Source of the DNA: Candidatus Omnitrophota bacterium
GTDB taxonomy: Bacteria; Omnitrophota; Gorgyraeia; Duberdicusellales; 4484-171
Reading direction: 5' to 3'
Length of the DNA stretch: 64,000 nt
Assembly (NCBI GenBank): GCA_043823745.1
Contig: JBDRAN010000005.1
Span: 4,459 to 68,458 of the forward strand
Each line of letters starts with the position of its first letter. Position 1 is the first letter of the stretch. Of the stretch, positions 38,720-49,002 are shown one piece after another. The translations under genes and the position numbers were made by a program. A model generated the notes under the pieces. It ran no database searches. It saw nothing but the letters and a program-made list of their open reading frames with translations, and was not told the DNA's origin.

Positions 38720-40018
38720 TTACTTATGCGCAGCGGGTGCCACCAAGCCGCGCCGCCGGGCGAGGACGCAAAGCGCTCGTATCTCTTCTTCCTTCGTCGC
38801 GAGCCCCTGATCGAGAACTACATCAAGAAGTTTTTCAAGAAGCCCGCCGTAGGCAGTATGCGGTTTAATACCGATGCGTTTTAAATCTTCACCGCGGACT
38901 TTAAGACGCACATGAGCGAGCGAATTCAAAAAATAACGAATGTTCGCGCGCAGGCGCGCGTTCGTATGGAAAGAATAGAGAAATACGATTGCTTCAAAAC
39001 TCAAAGGATTAAGCAGCCGGTAGATACGGTGCGTCGTAACAGGACGCGCCAGTATTTTTACTTTCGTAATATATTTTTTTATCGAAAGTACGCGGACACG
39101 CTCCCCTCTCCTAAAATCGAACGTCGAAAAAAACATATCAACCGCTCTCACCGAAGGTCTCATCAGCACCGCACTCAAGTACAGGAGCCAGATATCGAGC
39201 GGACGATGTTGCGAAAAATTCTTCTGGTATACACCAAGCGCCTGCCTGATGCGTCCGAAAAGCTTACGGCTTTCTTGAGTAAGACGGACGTTGGCAATAA
39301 AGGACAGTCCGTACATCTTTTCGATAGAGACTAAACACTTCCACGGATCGGGTTCCTTCAAAAGAAGCACGATCTCATCCCGAAGCCGATGCGGATGTAC
39401 AAGGGCCAGCGCGTGTTCCTGACGAGCGCGCGCGGCAAGCACCCTGGTACGTGGCTCGATGCGAAAACCGAAACGGTTCATAAAACGCACCGCGCGTATA
39501 ATGCGTGTGGGGTCATCACGGAAACTATTTGCGTGTAAAACTCTTATCAAACCTTTTTTAAGATCGTGTTGTCCGCCATAAAAATCGATACGTAATCCAT
39601 AATCTTCCCTATTAAGACTGATTGCCATCGCGTTAATCGTAAAATCTCGACGCAAGAGATCATCACGCAATGCTGCCGGCGTAACGCGAGGCAAGACTGC
39701 CTGTGATGCGTATGTTTCCTTACGCGCCGTGGCAAAATCAATTTTATGCGCACCGTAATAAACTGTTGCGGTACCAAAGGCATGGTGTCGTCTTAATTCT
39801 TTGTGCGCGACACGCGCAAATTCGCTCGCAAGCTTGATCGCGTCACCTTCAACAACCAGATCAAGATCGATAATTTCCTTCGCAAGGAGCAAATCCCGGA
39901 CTACACCGCCCACCAGGTATATCTTAAACCCAAGACGCTCAGATATAATACTTAAGGACTCGAGTATTTTTTTGAAATCATGATGTATGGTTGCAAGCTT
40001 AGAAATCATAATTCTCAT
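38720..40018 (-). CDS. tRNA nucleotidyltransferase/poly(A) polymerase family protein (CCA-adding enzyme-like)
   Basis: Pol-beta-type motif GGVVRDLLL...DLDLVV and RRDFTINA. Confidence 0.85.
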   Translation of the reverse strand: MRIMISKLATIHHDFKKILESLSIISERLGFKIYLVGGVVRDLLLAKEIIDLDLVVEGDAIKLASEFARVAHKELRRHHAFGTATVYYGAHKIDFATARKETYASQAVLPRVTPAALRDDLLRRDFTINAMAISLNREDYGLRIDFYGGQHDLKKGLIRVLHANSFRDDPTRIIRAVRFMNRFGFRIEPRTRVLAARARQEHALALVHPHRLRDEIVLLLKEPDPWKCLVSIEKMYGLSFIANVRLTQESRKLFGRIRQALGVYQKNFSQHRPLDIWLLYLSAVLMRPSVRAVDMFFSTFDFRRGERVRVLSIKKYITKVKILARPVTTHRIYRLLNPLSFEAIVFLYSFHTNARLRANIRYFLNSLAHVRLKVRGEDLKRIGIKPHTAYGGLLEKLLDVVLDQGLATKEEEIRALCVLARRRGLVAPAAHK

Positions 40019-40902
40019 TTTGCGCGAGGATGAAACTGCGCGTGAATCGCCTTAATCCTGCTCTTATTAACATGCGTATATATCTGGGTCGTTGTAATGC
40101 TGGCGTGCCCTAACATCTCCTGCACGCTGCGCAGGTCAGCTCCGTGCTCAAGAAGATGGGTCGCAAAAGAATGCCGAAACGTATGCGGGCTCACCCGCTT
40201 CTTAATGCCTACCTCTTTAACGGCACGTTTGATCATCTTCCAGATACTCTGACGGGATAAATGTCTCCCGCCCTGCGCCAAAAAAAGATACAACGAGGTT
40301 TTTTTGGCAAGGAGCGCGGGCCGCGCCTCGGTACAATACTTCTGGAGAAACTCCCGCGCAATACGGCCAAGCGGCACGATCCGCTCTTTTGAGCCTTTCC
40401 CCTTACATTTAATAAAACCAACTTCTAAATTAATATCGGCCACCTTAAGGTTTGACGCTTCTGAAACGCGCAAGCCACTGGCATACATCACTTCCAGTAT
40501 CGCCCTATCTCGTTTACCGTGCATATCGCGCAGATCAGGCACTTTCAAGATCCGCATTACATCATCGAAATCAAGACAATCGGGAATTTTCTTCTCGGTC
40601 TTTGGAGATTCAATGAGCTCGGTAGGATCGCTCGTCGAAACCTTTTCCCGCAACAAAAATTTATGAAAACTCTTAAGGGTCGACAGGACACGGGCGATGC
40701 TTATCGCCGACAAATTCTTGCGCAATGAAAAAAGAAAGTCAGTGATGTCTTTGCGGGTAATGGTAAGAGGGCTGGTTATCCCCCTTTGCTTCAAATGCTT
40801 TACGTAACAATCGAGATCATGCCCATAGGCATACAGAGAATTACCGGCAAGGCCTTTTTCAACCCGAAGGTAATCAAAGAATGCTTCGCGGTAGGCGTCC
40901 AT
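40015..40902 (-). CDS. xerD: site-specific tyrosine recombinase XerD-like
   Basis: 295 aa, C-terminal HTFRHSFATHLLEHGADLRSVQEMLGHASITTTQIYTHV with catalytic Tyr, and an N-terminal core-binding domain. It has no IntI-specific extra domain by length. Confidence 0.85.
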   Translation of the reverse strand: MDAYREAFFDYLRVEKGLAGNSLYAYGHDLDCYVKHLKQRGITSPLTITRKDITDFLFSLRKNLSAISIARVLSTLKSFHKFLLREKVSTSDPTELIESPKTEKKIPDCLDFDDVMRILKVPDLRDMHGKRDRAILEVMYASGLRVSEASNLKVADINLEVGFIKCKGKGSKERIVPLGRIAREFLQKYCTEARPALLAKKTSLYLFLAQGGRHLSRQSIWKMIKRAVKEVGIKKRVSPHTFRHSFATHLLEHGADLRSVQEMLGHASITTTQIYTHVNKSRIKAIHAQFHPRAK

Positions 40903-42131: not shown

Positions 42132-42908
42132 TTAACCTTTATATCCGCGATAATTAACCTTCACCAGGTACAATCCTCCTGCGGGCGCGGGCTCATTCCG
42201 ATATGGAACCGTACGCGCAAGGATCGCCTCGGCTTGCTCCAGACTTAAGATACCGGAGCCGACCTTCACTAAAAATCCAACAATATTACGCACCATAAAA
42301 CGCAGGAAACCATTCGCTTCGATATCAACATACAGAAAGCTGCCCCTCTTGATAACGCGCACCCCTTTCACCTCTCTTGCGCAATCATGATAGGTATGCG
42401 CCTCCTTCGCAAAGAGCGAAAAATCATGTTTGCCGATAAGACGTTTTGCCACATCCGCCATCGCGCGGCGGTTAAGTGGTTTTACTGTATGCCAGGCACG
42501 ATCAACCCAAAACACCGAAGGCTCTTTACCGTTTAAAATAATATACCGGTATATTTTCGAATGCGCGGCAAACCGCGCGTGGAAATCAAGCGGCATAAAA
42601 CGGGCACTTTTGACCCTGATATCCGCCGGCAGGAAAGTATTAAGCGCCCTCTTAATGTTAGACAAAGGGATTTTTGTATCAACAATAAAATTTGCCGCCT
42701 GAGCCTGAGCATGCACCCCTCTATCGGTGCGCGAGGCAGAGGTAAGCGCAACGCGCTTTTTAAAAAGCTTTTTGAGCGCCTGCTCCAGCTTCTGTTGAAC
42801 GGCAATCTCGCGCTTTCCCGACTTATTCTGGATTTGAAAGCCAAAATAGCGCGTTCCAACGTATTCAATAGTAAGAAGAATGTTTTTTTGCATAGTAATC
42901 GCTCTCAA
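42132..42908 (-). CDS. truA: tRNA pseudouridine(38-40) synthase
   Basis: LTIEYVGTRYFGFQ N-terminus and a catalytic RTDRGVHA motif. Confidence 0.9.
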   Translation of the reverse strand: MRAITMQKNILLTIEYVGTRYFGFQIQNKSGKREIAVQQKLEQALKKLFKKRVALTSASRTDRGVHAQAQAANFIVDTKIPLSNIKRALNTFLPADIRVKSARFMPLDFHARFAAHSKIYRYIILNGKEPSVFWVDRAWHTVKPLNRRAMADVAKRLIGKHDFSLFAKEAHTYHDCAREVKGVRVIKRGSFLYVDIEANGFLRFMVRNIVGFLVKVGSGILSLEQAEAILARTVPYRNEPAPAGGLYLVKVNYRGYKG

Positions 42909-43098
42909 TTGCCAGATTCTCTATATTCCATGTATTCCGTATTTTGTGATATTATAGGGTAAATATGGTGCGATTCAAGAATTTTCATTGTTTCCAAGCA
43001 GAAACTTCAGTATAATTAACATGAATAGTTTTAGGCTTAAAGCAAACACGGATTCCGTATATTAATTGTTAGGTTAATAAGCAGAAATAAAAAATGCT

Positions 43099-43428
43099 AT
43101 GAAAAAATCAGGTTTCAATCGGAGACAGAAAATTACCATAGGCATAATTATAGCTCTTCTATTGCTCGTTATTATTTTTCCACCTCAAGTAATTGTGAAC
43201 GCCGGAAAAAAATGGTCGGGACCGTCATGGAGACCAATTTTCTACGTGGGACAAGTTTTTCACGATTTAGATAGACTTGATGGGCAAGAGGCACGGGGAT
43301 TTAAAGTCTCTGAAGATAGGGAATTTCGCGTTGAATTAGCCTGGTCGGTACTTTTTCTTGAATTATTTAGCATCCTTTTGATTGGTGGAATATTGACTCG
43401 TAGTTTTAAATCAAAGAATAAAACCTAA
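43099..43428 (+). CDS. cassette ORF: small 2-TM membrane protein, unknown function
   Basis: 109 aa. The TAA stop (43426-43428) lies inside the ACCTAAC box of the downstream attC-like site. Confidence 0.6.
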   Translation: MKKSGFNRRQKITIGIIIALLLLVIIFPPQVIVNAGKKWSGPSWRPIFYVGQVFHDLDRLDGQEARGFKVSEDREFRVELAWSVLFLELFSILLIGGILTRSFKSKNKT

Positions 43429-43497
43429 CAACTTCATCCAGCCGACCCAACTCGCCCCTATCGGGGCTTCGTCGTGCGGCTGATGTCGGTGTTATGT
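43423..43497 (+). repeat. attC-like site 1 (75 bp)
   Basis: ACCTAAC...ATCCAGCCGACC...GCGGCTGAT...GTTATGT. The L'' and L' arms pair with one bulged C. Confidence 0.65.
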
Positions 43498-43525
43498 GAA
43501 AATAAAAATAAATAAGGAGGTGCGT

Positions 43526-43903
43526 ATGCGTATCTTGGGGAATATCGTATGGATGATACTCGGTGGAATATTAATATTTTTATACTATTGTCTTGGATGT
43601 ATTGTTCTCTGTATAACAATTATCGGAATACCATTTGGTATTCAATGTTTTAAAATGGCGACTCTAGCTCTGATGCCTTTCGGAAAAGAAGTAAAAAATG
43701 AAGAGAAAAGCACAGGCGCTATACCAACTATAATGAATGTTCTCTGGTTGCTCTTTTTTGGAGTTGAAATAGCAATTGTTCACTTATTTTTTGCCTTAAT
43801 ATTCGTCATTACAATAATTGGGATACCATTTGCTAAACAACATATGAAACTTGCAGCATTAGCGTTAACGCCCTTCGGGAAAGAAATAATAAAAATCACA
43901 TAA
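43526..43903 (+). CDS. cassette ORF: YccF-like (DUF307) inner membrane protein with internal duplication
   Basis: ATG 5 nt after AAGGAGG. Two repeats of ITIIGIPFG...K(M/L)A.LAL.PFGKE, characteristic of the YccF family. The track's GTG start at 43496 lies inside the attC and is rejected. Confidence 0.7.
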   Translation: MRILGNIVWMILGGILIFLYYCLGCIVLCITIIGIPFGIQCFKMATLALMPFGKEVKNEEKSTGAIPTIMNVLWLLFFGVEIAIVHLFFALIFVITIIGIPFAKQHMKLAALALTPFGKEIIKIT

Positions 43904-43974
43904 CAAAGCAATCCAGCCGACCTTACCTCCGCCCTATCGGGCTTCGGCAAGGCGGCTGATTTCGAGTGTTATAT
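43898..43974 (+). repeat. attC-like site 2 (77 bp)
   Basis: ACATAAC (contains the ORF stop)...ATCCAGCCGACC...GGCGGCTGAT...GTTATAT. Confidence 0.65.
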
Positions 43975-43997
43975 GAGAAAAATAAAAAGGAAAATCA

Positions 43998-44444
43998 ATG
44001 AAAAAGACCTTTATTTTATGTTTAACAATATTATTTTTTACAAATTTTTCTTACGCTGAAACAGAATATGAAAAAGGAGGTATCATTGTTGGTATTATTA
44101 GCAAAAAACAGCCAATCGCAATCGGTGAACAAATCTGTTCGGATACGGTAACGTGGGGAATAATTAAAAATGGGGAATTTATAGGAAACAATAGCGAAGA
44201 GAATGTTGAGATATATACATATGAGGGAATAGAAGATAATGAGGTAATAATGTCTACTAGAGGAAGATCATATGGTTATCTTAAATTACCATTAAATAAA
44301 GATAATCAAGCAATATGGCATGTTTCCTCTGAGGCGGACTTTATCATTTCTGTTATAGATAAAGAAAAAAACATAACAGTTAAATTGACAAATGGTTTGG
44401 ACAGCTGGAAAAGCATATTCTATGAAAAGGATTTAGGGAGCTAA
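43998..44444 (+). CDS. cassette ORF: secreted protein, unknown function
   Basis: 148 aa with signal peptide MKKTFILCLTILFFTNFSYA. Low GC. Confidence 0.6.
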   Translation: MKKTFILCLTILFFTNFSYAETEYEKGGIIVGIISKKQPIAIGEQICSDTVTWGIIKNGEFIGNNSEENVEIYTYEGIEDNEVIMSTRGRSYGYLKLPLNKDNQAIWHVSSEADFIISVIDKEKNITVKLTNGLDSWKSIFYEKDLGS

Positions 44445-44499
44445 TACAAAACAACCAATCCCAAAGTAAAAGAACAATTTAAAGAATGAATAAAAAACC

Positions 44500-44574
44500 A
44501 TATAACAAGTCAATCCACCTGACCCTCGAAGCGCGTTAAGCGCGCCTCTCGGGCAGGTGATTTTTATGTTAGAT
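44500..44574 (+). repeat. attC-like site 3 (75 bp)
   Basis: ATATAAC...ATCCACCTGACC...GCAGGTGAT...GTTAGAT. Stem bases covary with sites 1 and 2. The central hairpin is GCGCGTTAAGCGCGC. Confidence 0.65.
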
Positions 44575-44848
44575 GGAAAAAATAAAAATATAAATGAAAT
44601 CAATTAATACTATTTTAAAAATTGCCAGTGTTATTGTAATCGGTTTTCTATCTGAAATGCTTAGTAAATTTATTATTCTTTACTGCTCCTACCATTTATA
44701 GCTATAATTCAGTAGGCAGGCTAAGCGGGATGGGTTCGATATATCTGCTTCTGTTAGTTTTTCTTTACAGCAGTTTCACCTGTGCCATTTTTTTATTTAG
44801 GAAGGAAAAAATAAAACTTACTCTCCTATCCTAATTGTTGGCGGGTTT

Positions 44849-45247
44849 TTGTTGTCTGGTATGATATTTTTAGCTATGCCTGGCAAATCCTTAAAATTTC
44901 CTCATAATGCACCCATGGATGAACGTAATAATTGGGCTTTACACAACCTTAACCCATATTATTCGATAGCCGTTGAAAAAATAAAAAGCCGAGAGGCTAT
45001 ATTGAACGATGTGGGAGAAAATATAAAAATTGCTCCTAGCCCGTATTCCAATAATGGCATGTATGATGGCATAGTAGAATTTACCTTTGACATTGAAGGA
45101 AACAAAGGGCGGGGACAATGCGAAATAGCATATAGACACTATGGTTCAAAACCACACCATTGGTATAAAATAAAATGGAATTTTAATGGAGAAAGCAAAT
45201 TTTTAATAGGTCAAAATAATTATATTTTTAATCCTGTCGAACAGTAA
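44849..45247 (+). CDS. cassette ORF: hypothetical protein (start uncertain: TTG 44849 or ATG 44861)
   Basis: 132 aa. The frame is open from 44801 after a GGAAGGA SD-like sequence. No motif recognised. Confidence 0.5.
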   Translation: MLSGMIFLAMPGKSLKFPHNAPMDERNNWALHNLNPYYSIAVEKIKSREAILNDVGENIKIAPSPYSNNGMYDGIVEFTFDIEGNKGRGQCEIAYRHYGSKPHHWYKIKWNFNGESKFLIGQNNYIFNPVEQ

Positions 45248-45277
45248 TATTGAAAATTATTTGTATGCAACAAAAAC

Positions 45278-45352
45278 ATCTAACAACTCACTCCACCGGA
45301 TCCAATGAGCGGCTTTTCAAGCGTTCATCGTGCCGCTGATACGGTGTTAGAT
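45278..45352 (+). repeat. attC-like site 4 (75 bp)
   Basis: ATCTAAC...CTCCACCGGATCC...GCCGCTGAT...GTTAGAT. The terminal boxes are near-perfect reverse complements (ATCTAACA / TGTTAGAT). Confidence 0.6.
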
Positions 45353-45361
45353 TATAAGGAA

Positions 45362-45967
45362 ATGAAAGCATTGGATTTAAAAAAATTCCTGGAAGATGCC
45401 CCTTTCCCAAAAAGAGAGATATTCCTCCACGGACTACACTGGCAACCCTCAAGTGATAGCTTGCCAATGGAATTAAAGATAAACAATGCAGCGCAAACAA
45501 CCGTTGGGCTATTTTTTCTACCTTTATCTTTGGCTCTTTTTCTCTTGGGAATACCCCTTATATTTTGGGCTAACGAAATGGGTTTTATAGCTATTATAAT
45601 ATCTTTAGTGCTTATGGCCCTTGGCGCTATGGGCATAAAATACTCAATAGAACAAATTTTCAAAAGGGAAAAATTAATTATATCGCACAGTTATGTAGAG
45701 CTTATAAGTACAATGTTTCGATCAAACAAGAGCTGGAAAGAACCTCTTGAAAAATACAAAGGTGTTCTGGGATACAAACAGCGCTCCTGTACGGTGCAAG
45801 GAATCTATATGCCGGGGGTCTGGTGCATTATACTTTTACACCCCGAGCATGATAAGTCTGTATTACTGTACTTACACAATTCTGAAGAAAAAGACTCTAC
45901 ATTCGAGACTAAGCTTCAACGTTTCTCAAAATTATTAAAGAAAGGAATTATCCGGGAGGGTGCATGA
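45362..45967 (+). CDS. cassette ORF: 2-TM membrane protein with cytoplasmic N- and C-terminal regions, unknown function
   Basis: The ATG at 45362 follows ATAAGGAA. The track's longer version (45305) begins inside the attC and is rejected. It overlaps the next ORF by ATGA. Confidence 0.6.
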   Translation: MKALDLKKFLEDAPFPKREIFLHGLHWQPSSDSLPMELKINNAAQTTVGLFFLPLSLALFLLGIPLIFWANEMGFIAIIISLVLMALGAMGIKYSIEQIFKREKLIISHSYVELISTMFRSNKSWKEPLEKYKGVLGYKQRSCTVQGIYMPGVWCIILLHPEHDKSVLLYLHNSEEKDSTFETKLQRFSKLLKKGIIREGA

Positions 45968-46695
45968 AAAAATTATATTTCTTGCTTGGGGTCATTGTCG
46001 TGGGTATTTTTTTTAATGTTCCTACAACGTACGGCGAAGGCTTCCTTGATAAAACAATCGATTACCTTAAAAATAAAAGAATTGATGCTCTGGAACAACA
46101 AGCACGCAGTGTGGTACGAATAATTATCCGTGGCATAGAAGGCTATACCGATGATCATGGTGGTGCCTGCCCTCAAAGCGTAGAAGAGCTCACGAAAGGA
46201 AATCCACCCTACCTTACTCCCGGGATCCTTAGCCTCGCAACCGAAAAATATATATATTCGATCGAATCCGGACAAAATAGTTGTAAGGTTTTGAGGGTAC
46301 CAAAAGAATGCGGCAAGACAGGCAATTTGATTTTTTCAATGGAAATCATGAAAGGTGAGAATCCGTGTGGGGCGGGTATACAGCCCCTAAAAAGAAGTGA
46401 GATGATGGCTCAAATGGATCTAAGCATGTTCAGCTCTGTAATTGACGAGTACATTTCAAATAATAATGGTGCCTATCCGTTAGAAGAAAATAATCTTAAG
46501 CAGGCACTTGATGTTTCGAAGTTTCCGGGGTCGGATAGGATTTTTGATGATAATGGTAAAGGTGGGTACACGTATACAGTCGAGTATAGATCAAACGGAT
46601 ATAAAATAACCGCATTGCCTACGGAGTGTGGCAAAACCGGTACCAGGATATTTACAGAGGAAATCGTTGAATTAATACAGCAGTGTAAACAATAA
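45964..46695 (+). CDS. cassette ORF: secreted protein with two tandem pseudopilin-like (GspG-like) repeats
   Basis: Sec signal peptide, then two repeats each with helix + Y..D(D/N).G(G/A).P + ...ECGKTG(N/T).IF..EI. Translationally coupled to the upstream ORF. Confidence 0.6.
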   Translation: MKKLYFLLGVIVVGIFFNVPTTYGEGFLDKTIDYLKNKRIDALEQQARSVVRIIIRGIEGYTDDHGGACPQSVEELTKGNPPYLTPGILSLATEKYIYSIESGQNSCKVLRVPKECGKTGNLIFSMEIMKGENPCGAGIQPLKRSEMMAQMDLSMFSSVIDEYISNNNGAYPLEENNLKQALDVSKFPGSDRIFDDNGKGGYTYTVEYRSNGYKITALPTECGKTGTRIFTEEIVELIQQCKQ

Positions 46696-46999
46696 TTGGT
46701 TAAGACGACACCCTCTGACAACGATACCCAGCGGGCCTAAAACCGCCGGCTGATTGAGCATATCAAAGTATTGGGCCGTCGAATCCTTGTAATGACAAGA
46801 AAATGTTCCACATTTTCGATAATGTATGGATTCGACATAATTCAACCGGCTATTCTTTGTGCCCCTGCGGCTGCAAAGAATGAGGTTTCATTAACTGATT
46901 TTTTGCATTAAACTAAAAAAAATGAAAAAAAATAAAACTATCGTAACAGTAATCTTGCTGCCAATACTCAATACTATTTATTTGTAATAAAGGAGAAAT

Positions 47000-47884
47000 G
47001 TGTTCAGCCTCATTGCGCTTGTTAAGGAACGCCCTCGCTTATACATCTTTTTAAAGATCACCGGATTACTATATATTCATAGGTATCTCCGAGATTTCTA
47101 TCATCTTTTAAGATACGGCAGAAAAAAGGAAATTATTATCAATGGGATGTCATTTATGTTTCCCATTATGGATAACGCTACACGAAATTTCTTTTTTGAT
47201 CCTTGTTGGCTTGGGGAAATTTGGGAAAAGGATGTTGTCCACCATTTCATTAAAAACTTAGAGGGATGCTCGTGCTTTATCGATATTGGAGCTCATGTTG
47301 GCTTTTATTCTCTTATCGCCGCAAAGATAATTGCCCCGCGAGGCGGGGTAGTACATGCTGTAGAAATGGATCTTGATAATATTACCCGGCTAAAATCGGC
47401 TATTCGGCTTAACAACCTGAATAATATCACCGTTCACCATGCAGCTATCGGAGATCACCAAGGGGAAGTGGAGTATTCTTGTTGCGGTGCCGAATGTAAT
47501 ACATTAAACATAGGAAGTGATAAGAGGGTTTATACTAAACGATCCGTTCAAATGATAACCTTGGATAATCTTGTCGCTACAGAACGGCTCAATCCAGATA
47601 TAATAAAAATTGACGTAGAAGGTGCTGAATATTTAGTCTTACTCGGAATGAGAAAAGCACTCCGCTTAAACAACCTTAAAATCTATTGTGAGGCTCATCT
47701 ACATCAAGACAGAGGAAGTTTATCCTCTTTCGGGCATTCTCCGAAAGATGTAGTGCAGGTATTAAAAGAATATAGTTACACAATTGAGCAAATAGGCCTA
47801 AAACAAGGCAGTAAGATAAAACAAGGCATTATCCATGATCTTCAGGACACAAAAGAAAATGTAATGCTTTTTATACATAGGTAA
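47000..47884 (+). CDS. FkbM-family SAM-dependent methyltransferase
   Basis: IDIGAHVGFYS and IKIDVEGAE motifs. GTG at 47000 follows AAAGGAGAAAT. An internal ATG start is possible. Confidence 0.75.
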   Translation: MFSLIALVKERPRLYIFLKITGLLYIHRYLRDFYHLLRYGRKKEIIINGMSFMFPIMDNATRNFFFDPCWLGEIWEKDVVHHFIKNLEGCSCFIDIGAHVGFYSLIAAKIIAPRGGVVHAVEMDLDNITRLKSAIRLNNLNNITVHHAAIGDHQGEVEYSCCGAECNTLNIGSDKRVYTKRSVQMITLDNLVATERLNPDIIKIDVEGAEYLVLLGMRKALRLNNLKIYCEAHLHQDRGSLSSFGHSPKDVVQVLKEYSYTIEQIGLKQGSKIKQGIIHDLQDTKENVMLFIHR

Positions 47885-47922
47885 GTTGAGACGAAGCTTA
47901 TAGAGCAAAAGTTGGTTTTTAA

Positions 47923-49002
47923 CTATCGAGCGATGAGACACTCGGCAATCTGCACCGCGTTAAGTGCCGCGCCCTTTAGGAGATTATCCGCCACCACCCA
48001 CAGCCACATTCCGTTTTTAACAAACGGGTCTCTCCTGATACGCCCCACAAAAACCTCACCCTTACCCTCGACATCCTTAGGCATCGGATAAAGGTTCTTT
48101 GCCGGATCGTCAACGAGAATGATGCCGGGCGCGCGGGCCAGGAGGGCCTTAACTTTGGCGGGCTCCATGGGCTTTTTGGTTTCAATATAAATCGATTCAG
48201 AATGCCCGGTACGCACCGGAACACGCACCGTGGTAGCGGAAATCTTAATTTTGTTATCATGCATTATCTTATGTGTCTCGTTAACCAGCTTCCACTCCTC
48301 CGAGGTATAATCACAATCGCTAAACCCACCGATCTGAGGAAAAACATTATAGGCCAGCTGCTGGGGCATGGAGCGCTCGGCCACTGCTTGGATACTCTTG
48401 TATCCGCCGGCGGTAATCGAGGATGTTTCCTCGTTTAGCTGCTCAACCGCTGATTTTCCCGCGCCGCTTGAAGCCTGCAGGGTTGTCACAATAACGCGCT
48501 TAATACCCGCTTTTTTATATATAGGCCAGAGCGCGACTACCATCTGAATCGTTGAACAATTAGGGTTAGCGATAATTCCTTTATGCTTCTTTACCCCGTT
48601 AGAAATACCCGATGAACGGTGAAGGAACCAATTTCTAACGGGGTTAATATCCGAAGCATTTACTTCAGGAACGACCAACGGAACACCGGGCTGCATACGA
48701 AAATCAGCACCATTGTCAATAACAACCGCGCCCCGCTTGACCGCTTCATGCGCATAGGTTGCGGCTGCGCCCTTTTCCCCTTCGGTGCCGGCGAAAAGCG
48801 CTATATCGATACCATTAAAGCCTTGGGCTGATATAGCCTCGACCTTATATGATCGTCCGTCAACTTCTATCGCACGCGCCGAACGCGCGAAAACGCGCAA
48901 CGTCTCTACCGGAAAGTTAGATGCCCGCAGGCACCGCAACATCTCAATACCGACAACGCCCACACCCACCACACACACATTGTATTTAGTTTTTTTCTTC
49001 AT
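47923..49002 (-). CDS. asd: aspartate-semialdehyde dehydrogenase
   Basis: VCVVGVGVVG NAD motif, active-site Cys context (IANPNCSTI), and a C-terminal dimerisation domain. Confidence 0.95.
   Translation of the reverse strand: MKKKTKYNVCVVGVGVVGIEMLRCLRASNFPVETLRVFARSARAIEVDGRSYKVEAISAQGFNGIDIALFAGTEGEKGAAATYAHEAVKRGAVVIDNGADFRMQPGVPLVVPEVNASDINPVRNWFLHRSSGISNGVKKHKGIIANPNCSTIQMVVALWPIYKKAGIKRVIVTTLQASSGAGKSAVEQLNEETSSITAGGYKSIQAVAERSMPQQLAYNVFPQIGGFSDCDYTSEEWKLVNETHKIMHDNKIKISATTVRVPVRTGHSESIYIETKKPMEPAKVKALLARAPGIILVDDPAKNLYPMPKDVEGKGEVFVGRIRRDPFVKNGMWLWVVADNLLKGAALNAVQIAECLIAR

Follow-up and report, generated by a model that had tools for sequence, protein, structure and literature searches.

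The window analysed here, a stretch of 64,000 nt from a Candidatus Omnitrophota bacterium (contig JBDRAN010000005.1) whose coordinates are used throughout, contains an array of integron-type gene cassettes situated between the housekeeping genes truA and asd. The array is part of a 5.0 kb block of open reading frames (ORFs) on the plus strand, whereas both flanking genes, truA on the left (42132-42893; PF01416, E 1.3e-36) and asd on the right (47923-49002; PF01118 and PF02774), are encoded on the minus strand. With a GC content of 36.7% (42909-47922), this island is clearly AT-richer than its flanks (46.8% and 48.0%) and represents the only clear plus-strand gene block of the window; the one other plus-strand ORF, 288-884, has no family match. 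An AT-rich plus-strand island between truA and asd had been proposed in the initial annotation of the stretch, and both the island and the identities of the two flanking genes were confirmed. The array proper covers about 3.7 kb and is separated from truA by an intergenic stretch of 159 bp (42909-43067).

Architecture of the attC sites

Four elements of closely similar length are found in the array, each located directly 3' of an ORF: attC1 (43423-43497, 75 nt), attC2 (43898-43974, 77 nt), attC3 (44500-44574, 75 nt) and attC4 (45278-45352, 75 nt). All four lie on the plus strand with a spacing of 475-778 bp, and their pairwise similarity ranges from 54 to 70%. The common architecture of these 75-77 bp elements was recognized in the initial annotation, and all eight outer boxes were found in place. 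Its further claim that the boxes match RYYYAAC and GTTRRRY holds for only part of them. While the AAC and GTT triplets are present in four out of four elements, the strict 7-mer consensus applies to four of the eight boxes (ACCTAAC, ATCTAAC and twice GTTAGAT), and the remaining four (ACATAAC, ATATAAC, GTTATGT and GTTATAT) deviate from it by one position each.

Between the boxes, the four elements share a 5' arm of the form TAACAAnnnAnTCCAsCnGAy and a 3' arm of the form GsTGAT-n(4-6)-TGTTA. The 5' arm pattern TAACAANNNANTCCASCNGAY occurs four times in 64 kb, in each case within the array. Since only 0.13 occurrences are expected and none of 100 shuffled sequences reached four, a chance origin of the pattern can be excluded.

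Folded as single-stranded DNA, the bottom (minus) strand of the elements forms a stem of 5-8 bp from the R boxes, followed on each side by an unpaired spacer of 4-5 nt. Beyond the spacer, 3 bp of stem lead to an extrahelical G; a stem of 6 bp (CAGCCG/CGGCTG or a variant of it) separates this G from an extrahelical T, and a variable stem-loop closes the hairpin. When positions are numbered from the bottom strand's 3' end, the two extrahelical bases are G16 and T23, with six nucleotides between them, in all four elements. This arrangement corresponds to the attC sites studied by Nivina et al. 2016 (PMC5027507), whose central spacer is unpaired and which end in a variable terminal structure (VTS), and in which G16 and a conserved T at position 23 or 24 require a 6 bp stem between them. 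The fold energies of the bottom strands are -17.6 to -18.6 kcal/mol (-17.6 kcal/mol for attC1), with z-scores of -3.8 to -5.2 in three of the four elements (-3.8 for attC1, -5.2 for attC2 and -4.7 for attC3). The weakest of the four is attC4, which has a mismatch in the L stem and a z-score of -1.5. Paired R and L boxes with extrahelical bases, the structural feature by which the initial annotation had suggested judging the elements, are accordingly found, less well developed in attC4. Each of the four elements between the ORFs is an attC site of the classical type.

The close relationship to well-studied sites becomes apparent from a comparison with attC_aadA1 (R100/In2) and attC_aadA7, which display the same order of boxes and a near-identical 5' arm, CTAACAAnnnnnTC(A/C)AGCCGAC. 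In addition, attC_aadA1 of R100 likewise has G16 and T23 separated by a 6 bp stem, as well as a central spacer of about 5 nt that is left unpaired. The 75-77 nt sites of the window exceed the 60 nt of the class 1 attC because their variable terminal stem-loop is longer. Apart from this, the locus differs from class 1 integrons in lacking IntI1, attI1, Pc and the 3' conserved segment, and its cargo is not antibiotic resistance.

Covariance models and the wider attC family

Two covariance models were used for detection of attC sites. Model R1 was built from the four elements of the window. The training set of model R2 comprised 17 attC sites of nine other loci, the window itself contributing none. 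Eight of these nine loci carry a verified integron integrase (387-478 bits with TIGR02249 at a cutoff of 265), and the ninth (L087) carries a truncated integrase-like ORF. Applied to the 64 kb, R2 detected exactly the four elements on the correct strand, with 50.7 bits for attC1 (E 5e-10), 57.9 bits for attC2 (E 7e-12), 51.9 bits for attC3 (E 2.5e-10) and 32.6 bits for attC4 (E 2e-5), the next, unrelated match reaching 11.6 bits. The covariance-model check envisaged in the initial annotation thus had a positive outcome with these surrogate models. No match to any Rfam family was obtained in the whole window at gathering thresholds.

The reach of the family extends well beyond the window. R1 detects attC_aadA1 in R100/In2 and, in a Pseudomonas aeruginosa class 1 integron, an attC with 98% identity to the aadA1 query, the two scoring 32.7-33.2 bits (E ~5e-5). 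The related control loci, 833 kb in total, gave no R1 match at E<=1. A two-arm pattern derived from the window elements matched at least 120 public genome stretches, compared with a rough chance expectation of about 6. Among the matches listed, the genomes include Endozoicomonas, Marinomonas, Vibrio, Syntrophaceae, Planctomycetota and many Candidatus Omnitrophota, and R1 finds at least 158 sites in the listed stretches, often arrayed (15 in L002 and 8 in L105). Also among the matches listed, integrases passing TIGR02249 are present in eight of the arbitrarily cut 8 kb blocks, including L070 from an Omnitrophota metagenome-assembled genome (MAG). In an alignment of 125 family members from these matches, which was itself fitted to the model, 91% of cells are paired as against 31-44% when the partner is slid, and changes on both sides are seen in 12 of 14 L/VTS pairs.

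An alignment with the complete integrons of L070, L094, L020, L024, L045, L076, L015 and L117, which derive from Omnitrophota, Aminicenantales, Syntrophaceae and others, assigns the sites of the window to the same attC subtype. These loci hold an integrase gene within 8 kb, whereas the window holds none. Three loci, L070, L094 and L087, do not show the classical divergent layout of attC sites and intI. The retrieved integrases, of Omnitrophota or deltaproteobacterial type, are mostly 415-445 residues long (L070:3854-5062, L020:2459-3793, L024:4529-5854, P0005-P0124) and about 100 residues longer at the N-terminus than the 315-position TIGR02249 model. Among the matches listed, the relatives scoring highest with R1 (70 and 76 bits) are found at L054:358-436 and 1732-1828, two near-identical sites on a complete Omnitrophota chromosome (CP070807.1), and at L006:1499-1576, in a Planctomycetia MAG. 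L054 carries an xerD fragment beside a masked stretch; it was considered as a syntenic counterpart and rejected, as it is not syntenic with the window.

Cassette boundaries

If cassettes are inserted by integrase crossover between G and TT via circular intermediates, the box at the start of each cassette should be complementary to the R'' box of the attC site at its own end. This is the case in four out of four cassettes, where the start box is the perfect reverse complement of the cassette's own R'' box: GTTAGGT (43068) and ACCTAAC (43423) in cassette 1, GTTATGT (43491) and ACATAAC (43898) in cassette 2, GTTATAT (43968) and ATATAAC (44500) in cassette 3, and GTTAGAT (44568) and ATCTAAC (45278) in cassette 4. 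The R'' and R' boxes that are physically adjacent match perfectly in only one of four sites. The occurrence of off-consensus boxes in the linear array is explained by the same rule, since the cassette boundaries split the pairing and each R'' box complements its own cassette start. Judged by this pattern of complementarity, the cassettes have been joined one by one through G|TT crossover.

The left end of the array is defined by the junction G|TTAGGT (43068-43074, plus strand), in which the G belongs to the target and TTAGGT forms the 5' end of cassette 1. Complementarity to the ACCTAAC box of cassette 1 identifies the GTTAGGT at 43068 as a true recombination junction. A degraded proximal site, extending from AATTAAC (43014) to this GTTAGGT, had been suspected in the initial annotation, but only the GTTAGGT proved meaningful. 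As an attC candidate, 43014-43074 was rejected: it gave no match with R1 and 11.1 bits (E 6.3) with R2, on the opposite strand only, and its fold is weak (-5.5 kcal/mol, z -1.9).

Search for an integron integrase

A tblastn search of the whole window with eight IntI proteins at E<=10 returned a single match, the minus-strand ORF 40015-40902. This protein scores 368.7 bits with the XerD model TIGR02225 (cutoff 329.6) but fails the integron-integrase model TIGR02249, with 153 bits, in two stretches, at a cutoff of 265. Moreover, the IntI-specific insertion is missing from it in the alignment. On the basis of its sequence the protein is XerD and no integron integrase, in line with the XerD-like character ascribed to it earlier. 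Neither an intI gene nor an intI pseudogene was detected in the window, which covers 43 kb upstream and 16 kb downstream of the array, and the absence of an integron integrase from the window, as noted in the initial annotation, is corroborated. The search for IntI homologues did retrieve many integron integrases from Omnitrophota.

In the 159 bp between truA and the array (42909-43067), the covariance models gave no attC match on the array strand and the IntI similarity search revealed no intI remnant. No attI is recognizable there, attI sequences being specific to their integrase, and the stretch has no similarity to the equivalent region of the related loci L122 and L125.

Gene content of the cassettes

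The intact cassettes are 423-778 bp long and each carries one co-oriented ORF with a ribosome-binding site. Cassette 1 (43069-43491, plus strand, 423 bp) encodes a membrane protein of 109 residues without family assignment (ORF 43099-43428). Cassette 2 (43492-43968, plus strand, 477 bp) encodes an inner-membrane protein of the YccF family (ORF 43523-43903; PF03733, E 2.6e-39; NF008740, 152.6 bits at a cutoff of 123). An 86-nt direct repeat with 71% identity inside this cassette (43613-43698 and 43808-43893) reflects the two YccF domains and is no mobile repeat. The protein encoded by cassette 3 (43969-44568, plus strand, 600 bp; ORF 43998-44444) comprises 148 residues with a signal peptide and belongs to a rare family: a word-indexed search retrieved only the protein itself, no Pfam family was assigned, and seven remote relatives were found among 1.84 billion representatives. 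In cassette 4 (44569-45346, plus strand, 778 bp) the reading frame is disrupted (44596-44700 and 44849-45247), and three-frame translation reveals in-frame stops and frame changes, so that this cassette is probably a pseudogene. Two of the cassette proteins carry the locus tags ABH865_01690 and ABH865_01705 in the Candidatus Omnitrophota MAG.

The compact arrangement described in the initial annotation was found as predicted. The stop codon lies inside the 5' box in two cases (TAA at 43426-43428 in ORF1 and at 43901-43903 in ORF2), and each following ORF begins 25, 23, 21 and 9 nt past the 3' box behind a Shine-Dalgarno sequence, within the 5-30 nt given there. The cargo had been described as exclusively small membrane or secreted proteins of unknown function. 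Broadly this is correct, except that one cassette encodes a YccF-family protein and another is a pseudogene. Nothing points to the defence function hinted at for the cargo, since PADLOC gave no match to any cassette protein, its one weak match (17.9 bits) being to the FkbM-family methyltransferase encoded to the right of the array; the cargo gives no lead to a new function.

Although equipped with ribosome-binding sites, the cassettes have no evident promoters. A scan of the region for promoters and terminators yielded 18 promoter-like matches, compared with 18.1 expected from shuffled sequences, and the consensus scan gave no plus-strand promoter match upstream of the first cassette. Expression of the cassettes would depend on an external promoter, by read-through from the truA-proximal intergenic region. 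On the minus strand, a sigma-70-like match at 42978-42951 (TTGAAT, 16 nt spacer, TATAAT; a match to the consensus only) is directed toward truA. In relatives truA and asd are transcribed together, so the insertion would have left truA in need of its own promoter, a role that this match could now fill.

A probable fifth, decayed unit

The region following attC4 had been included in the array in the initial annotation (45353-46790). Instead of a clean cassette, two overlapping ORFs and a weak attC remnant are found here. The unit (45347-46770, plus strand) opens with TTAGAT directly past the G of attC4 and comprises ORFs 45362-45967, encoding a membrane protein of 201 residues, and 45964-46695, encoding a protein of 243 residues with a signal peptide; neither belongs to a known family. 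At its end, a candidate attC remnant (46711-46770, plus strand) displays recognizable L boxes and an R'' box, CTCTGAC (46713), which is two substitutions away from the ATCTAAC predicted by the start of the unit, while the GTT triplet of the R' box is lost. Among the non-self matches of R1 in the window this segment ranks first, with the expected strand and position (16.5 bits, E 0.67); with R2, however, it is at noise level (11.1 bits, E 6.3) and its fold has a z-score of only -0.6. The unit is probably a decayed fifth cassette, with 46711-46770 as a weak candidate for the remnant of its attC site.

Three homologues of the 243-residue protein were found, with 38-58% identity. The two closest (P0002 and P0003, 51-58%) do not adjoin attC sites, so that they provide no evidence for mobility of the unit elsewhere. 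The two halves of the protein resemble each other and both contain an (E)CGKTG motif. In L204 (194-1579), the gene for P0002 (58% identical) is located directly behind a PilW_C/N_methyl pseudopilin-like gene. These features hint at a possible pilus- or secretion-associated role.

The asd-truA junction in related genomes

For comparison, 80 metagenome loci with an Asd protein 67-78% identical to that of the window were examined. In these loci a leuB-like gene, asd and truA are co-directional, and in about 70 of the 80 truA follows directly after asd, the two genes overlapping or being less than 100 bp apart. Neither an attC site nor a homologue of any island gene is present in the 80 loci. Of the expectation that truA and asd stay syntenic while the cassettes vary, this set shows the synteny, with the cassette ORFs absent, and the vertically inherited operon that the initial annotation had named as a competing possibility is not seen, neither ORFs nor elements being conserved. 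Adjacency of asd and truA in the relatives characterizes the island as a lineage-specific insertion bounded by housekeeping genes.

In the two closest relatives, L122 and L125 (TruA 58% identical), the gap between asd and truA is widened to 0.6-0.7 kb. Each gap harbours one small opposite-strand ORF for a membrane protein (L122:8273-8500, minus strand, and L125:11185-11538, minus strand); the two ORFs differ from each other, and both are preceded by the motif TGCTATAAT. Pairs of RYYYAAC and GTTRRRY boxes were not found in the asd-truA gaps of L122, L125, L182, L191, L127, L136 and L159. In L122, about 75 bp of the asd 3'-end are present in a second copy (L122:8140-8220) beside a 75-residue opposite-strand membrane-protein ORF, whose stop codon is followed by GTTAGAT, which suggests an old insertion at the same junction. 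Small genes seem to have landed repeatedly at the asd-truA junction in this clade. The window, by contrast with L122, shows no duplication of the asd 3'-end, and no direct repeats flank the island.

Right end of the island and genomic setting

Between the fifth unit and asd, the island holds a gene for an FkbM-family methyltransferase (47000-47884, plus strand; PF05050, E 1.6e-17; TIGR01444, 104 bits). The gene is part of the AT-rich insertion and is not followed by an attC site; no homologue occurs in the 80 related loci. A second MAG contig (GCA_018827245.1, JAHJZK010000109.1; L001) matches the window with 99.97% identity along 3802 nt (window 50810-47009) and diverges at the 5' end of the FkbM gene (47009; compared stretch 46982-47009). 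Its final 27 nt, TCAAAAATTGAGGCGGGGCAAAGACGA (L001:3803-3829), have no match in the window or in any fetched locus, and the divergence reflects either a polymorphism of the island between strains or an artefact of the contig end. Nearly all genes of the window are on the minus strand, and the GC skew of the plus strand is negative in the flanks, which suggests that replication runs across the window from right to left.

Classification of the array

According to Cury et al. 2016 (PMC4889954), an attC cluster that lacks integrase (CALIN) comprises two or more attC sites separated by less than 4 kb on one strand without a nearby intI. At the present locus four sites are located 475-778 bp apart, and neither intI nor a pseudogene of it occurs in 64 kb. 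An adjacent intI with the IntI-specific domain, as in a complete integron, and a long homogeneous array contiguous with intI, as in a sedentary chromosomal integron, are both missing. Taken together, we assign a probability of about 0.9 to the reading that four intact integron cassettes, one probable decayed cassette and the FkbM gene constitute a 5 kb CALIN island at the asd-truA junction. The integrase-less cassette array inferred in the initial annotation is borne out by the structure of the elements, the covariance models, the complementarity at the junctions, the proximity of the attC family to IntI elsewhere and the synteny of the flanking genes. Like the CALINs described by Cury et al., the array combines attC sites on one strand with short co-oriented ORFs, each followed by an attC site, and lacks intI. 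Nothing essential differs; the array is found in Candidatus Omnitrophota, where it splits the conserved asd-truA pair.

Several observations weigh against this classification. Half of the R boxes depart from the strict 7-mer consensus, the bottom strand of attC4 folds poorly, and promoter-like matches are no commoner than in shuffled sequences. R1 and R2 are surrogates for the attC model of IntegronFinder, and the training sites of R2 were found via a pattern and a model derived from the window, which renders the test partly circular; despite this selection, the adjacency of the training sites to IntI constitutes independent evidence. The absence of an integrase holds for the 64 kb window only. 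With regard to the origin of the island, the nearest relatives are 76-78% identical in Asd and provide no strain-level empty site.

If an integrase were supplied in trans, either from elsewhere in the genome or by an incoming element, the bottom (minus) strands of the attC sites would form hairpins to which IntI could bind through the R and L boxes together with the extrahelical G and T. Recombination between two attC sites would excise a cassette as a circle, which might be re-inserted elsewhere. As long as integrase is lacking, the array would be static and prone to decay, a state that may be reflected in the pseudogene of cassette 4 with its weakest attC site and in the fifth site without R' box.

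Origin of the array

Insertion of cassettes by IntI at a site other than attI, a secondary or attG-type site recombined at G|TT, with later additions, is slightly favoured over deletion of an intI-attI platform, because no trace of intI is found and the junction is intact only 160 bp from truA. Genomic attG insertion yielding SALINs was described by Loot et al. (bioRxiv 10.1101/2022.09.11.507474) for a GWT target in experiments on single cassettes. The present locus likewise displays cassettes at a non-integron chromosomal position, with a G|TT junction fitting GWT, beside an intergenic or promoter region. It differs in that four or five cassettes are present instead of single ones, and its junction is a putative attG. 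Under an attG-type insertion, the bare target would read ...ATTAATTG|TT.... We tentatively propose that the array was built up naturally at such a G|TT target in the asd-truA junction by an integrase located elsewhere or passing through, which kept adding cassettes. The array may still vary between near-identical strains, as the second MAG diverges from the window at 47009; as a complete scenario this is possible, although the odds are rather below even.

An alternative scenario, which would still make the locus a CALIN, is that of a complete integron whose intI-attI platform between truA and cassette 1 has since been deleted. Loss of intI is one of the routes to CALINs given by Cury et al. 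2016 (PMC4889954), Omnitrophota MAGs commonly encode integron integrases, and signs of decay are present in the cassette 4 pseudogene and the degenerate fifth attC site; the 159 bp left of the junction could, moreover, hold remains of attI. Against it stands that the tblastn search with eight IntI proteins (E<=10) uncovered only xerD and no trace of intI, and that the deletion must have been nearly exact since G|TTAGGT is preserved only 160 bp from the start of truA. The missing intI discriminates only weakly against such a loss, because 95% of CALINs are without a nearby intI pseudogene (Cury et al. 2016, PMC4889954). On balance we regard the deletion scenario as somewhat unlikely.

It is highly improbable that the array represents a distal segment of a large sedentary chromosomal integron with its integrase further along the same array, as the initial annotation had considered. 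The moderate similarity among the attC sites (54-70%) and a cargo without known function would be typical of chromosomal integrons, but the array is bounded within 5 kb by housekeeping genes that are adjacent in relatives, and neither a further attC site (by R1 or R2) nor intI is present in the 64 kb. A family of REP-like or terminator-like hairpins, or of intergenic hairpins in a vertically inherited operon, has a still smaller, almost negligible probability: although the elements are GC-rich hairpins behind ORFs without an Rfam family, and a terminator-like match (44543-44559) coincides with part of attC3, the conserved AAC and GTT triplets, the G16 and T23 bulges on one strand only, the complementarity of each cassette's own boxes and the adjacency to IntI elsewhere are specific for attC, neither the rest of the 64 kb nor the 833 kb of related loci holds a copy, and the ORFs are absent from relatives.

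Implications

For annotation, attC is the label to be given to the four hairpins between the ORFs, and the recombinase encoded three genes away should be listed as XerD, not IntI. The kind of element found here is well known; mildly notable are the phylum and the place of insertion. MAGs of Candidatus Omnitrophota already contain annotated integron integrases, while our literature search found no integron literature on Candidatus Omnitrophota, to which the locus adds a textbook-clean CALIN. Because the arrangement of asd and truA in the relatives provides a defined ancestral state, the locus could help to distinguish insertion at a secondary site from loss of the integrase. If build-up at an attG-type site is true, the array would provide a multi-cassette case of dissemination via attG in nature, from a candidate phylum and with clear comparators for the ancestral state.

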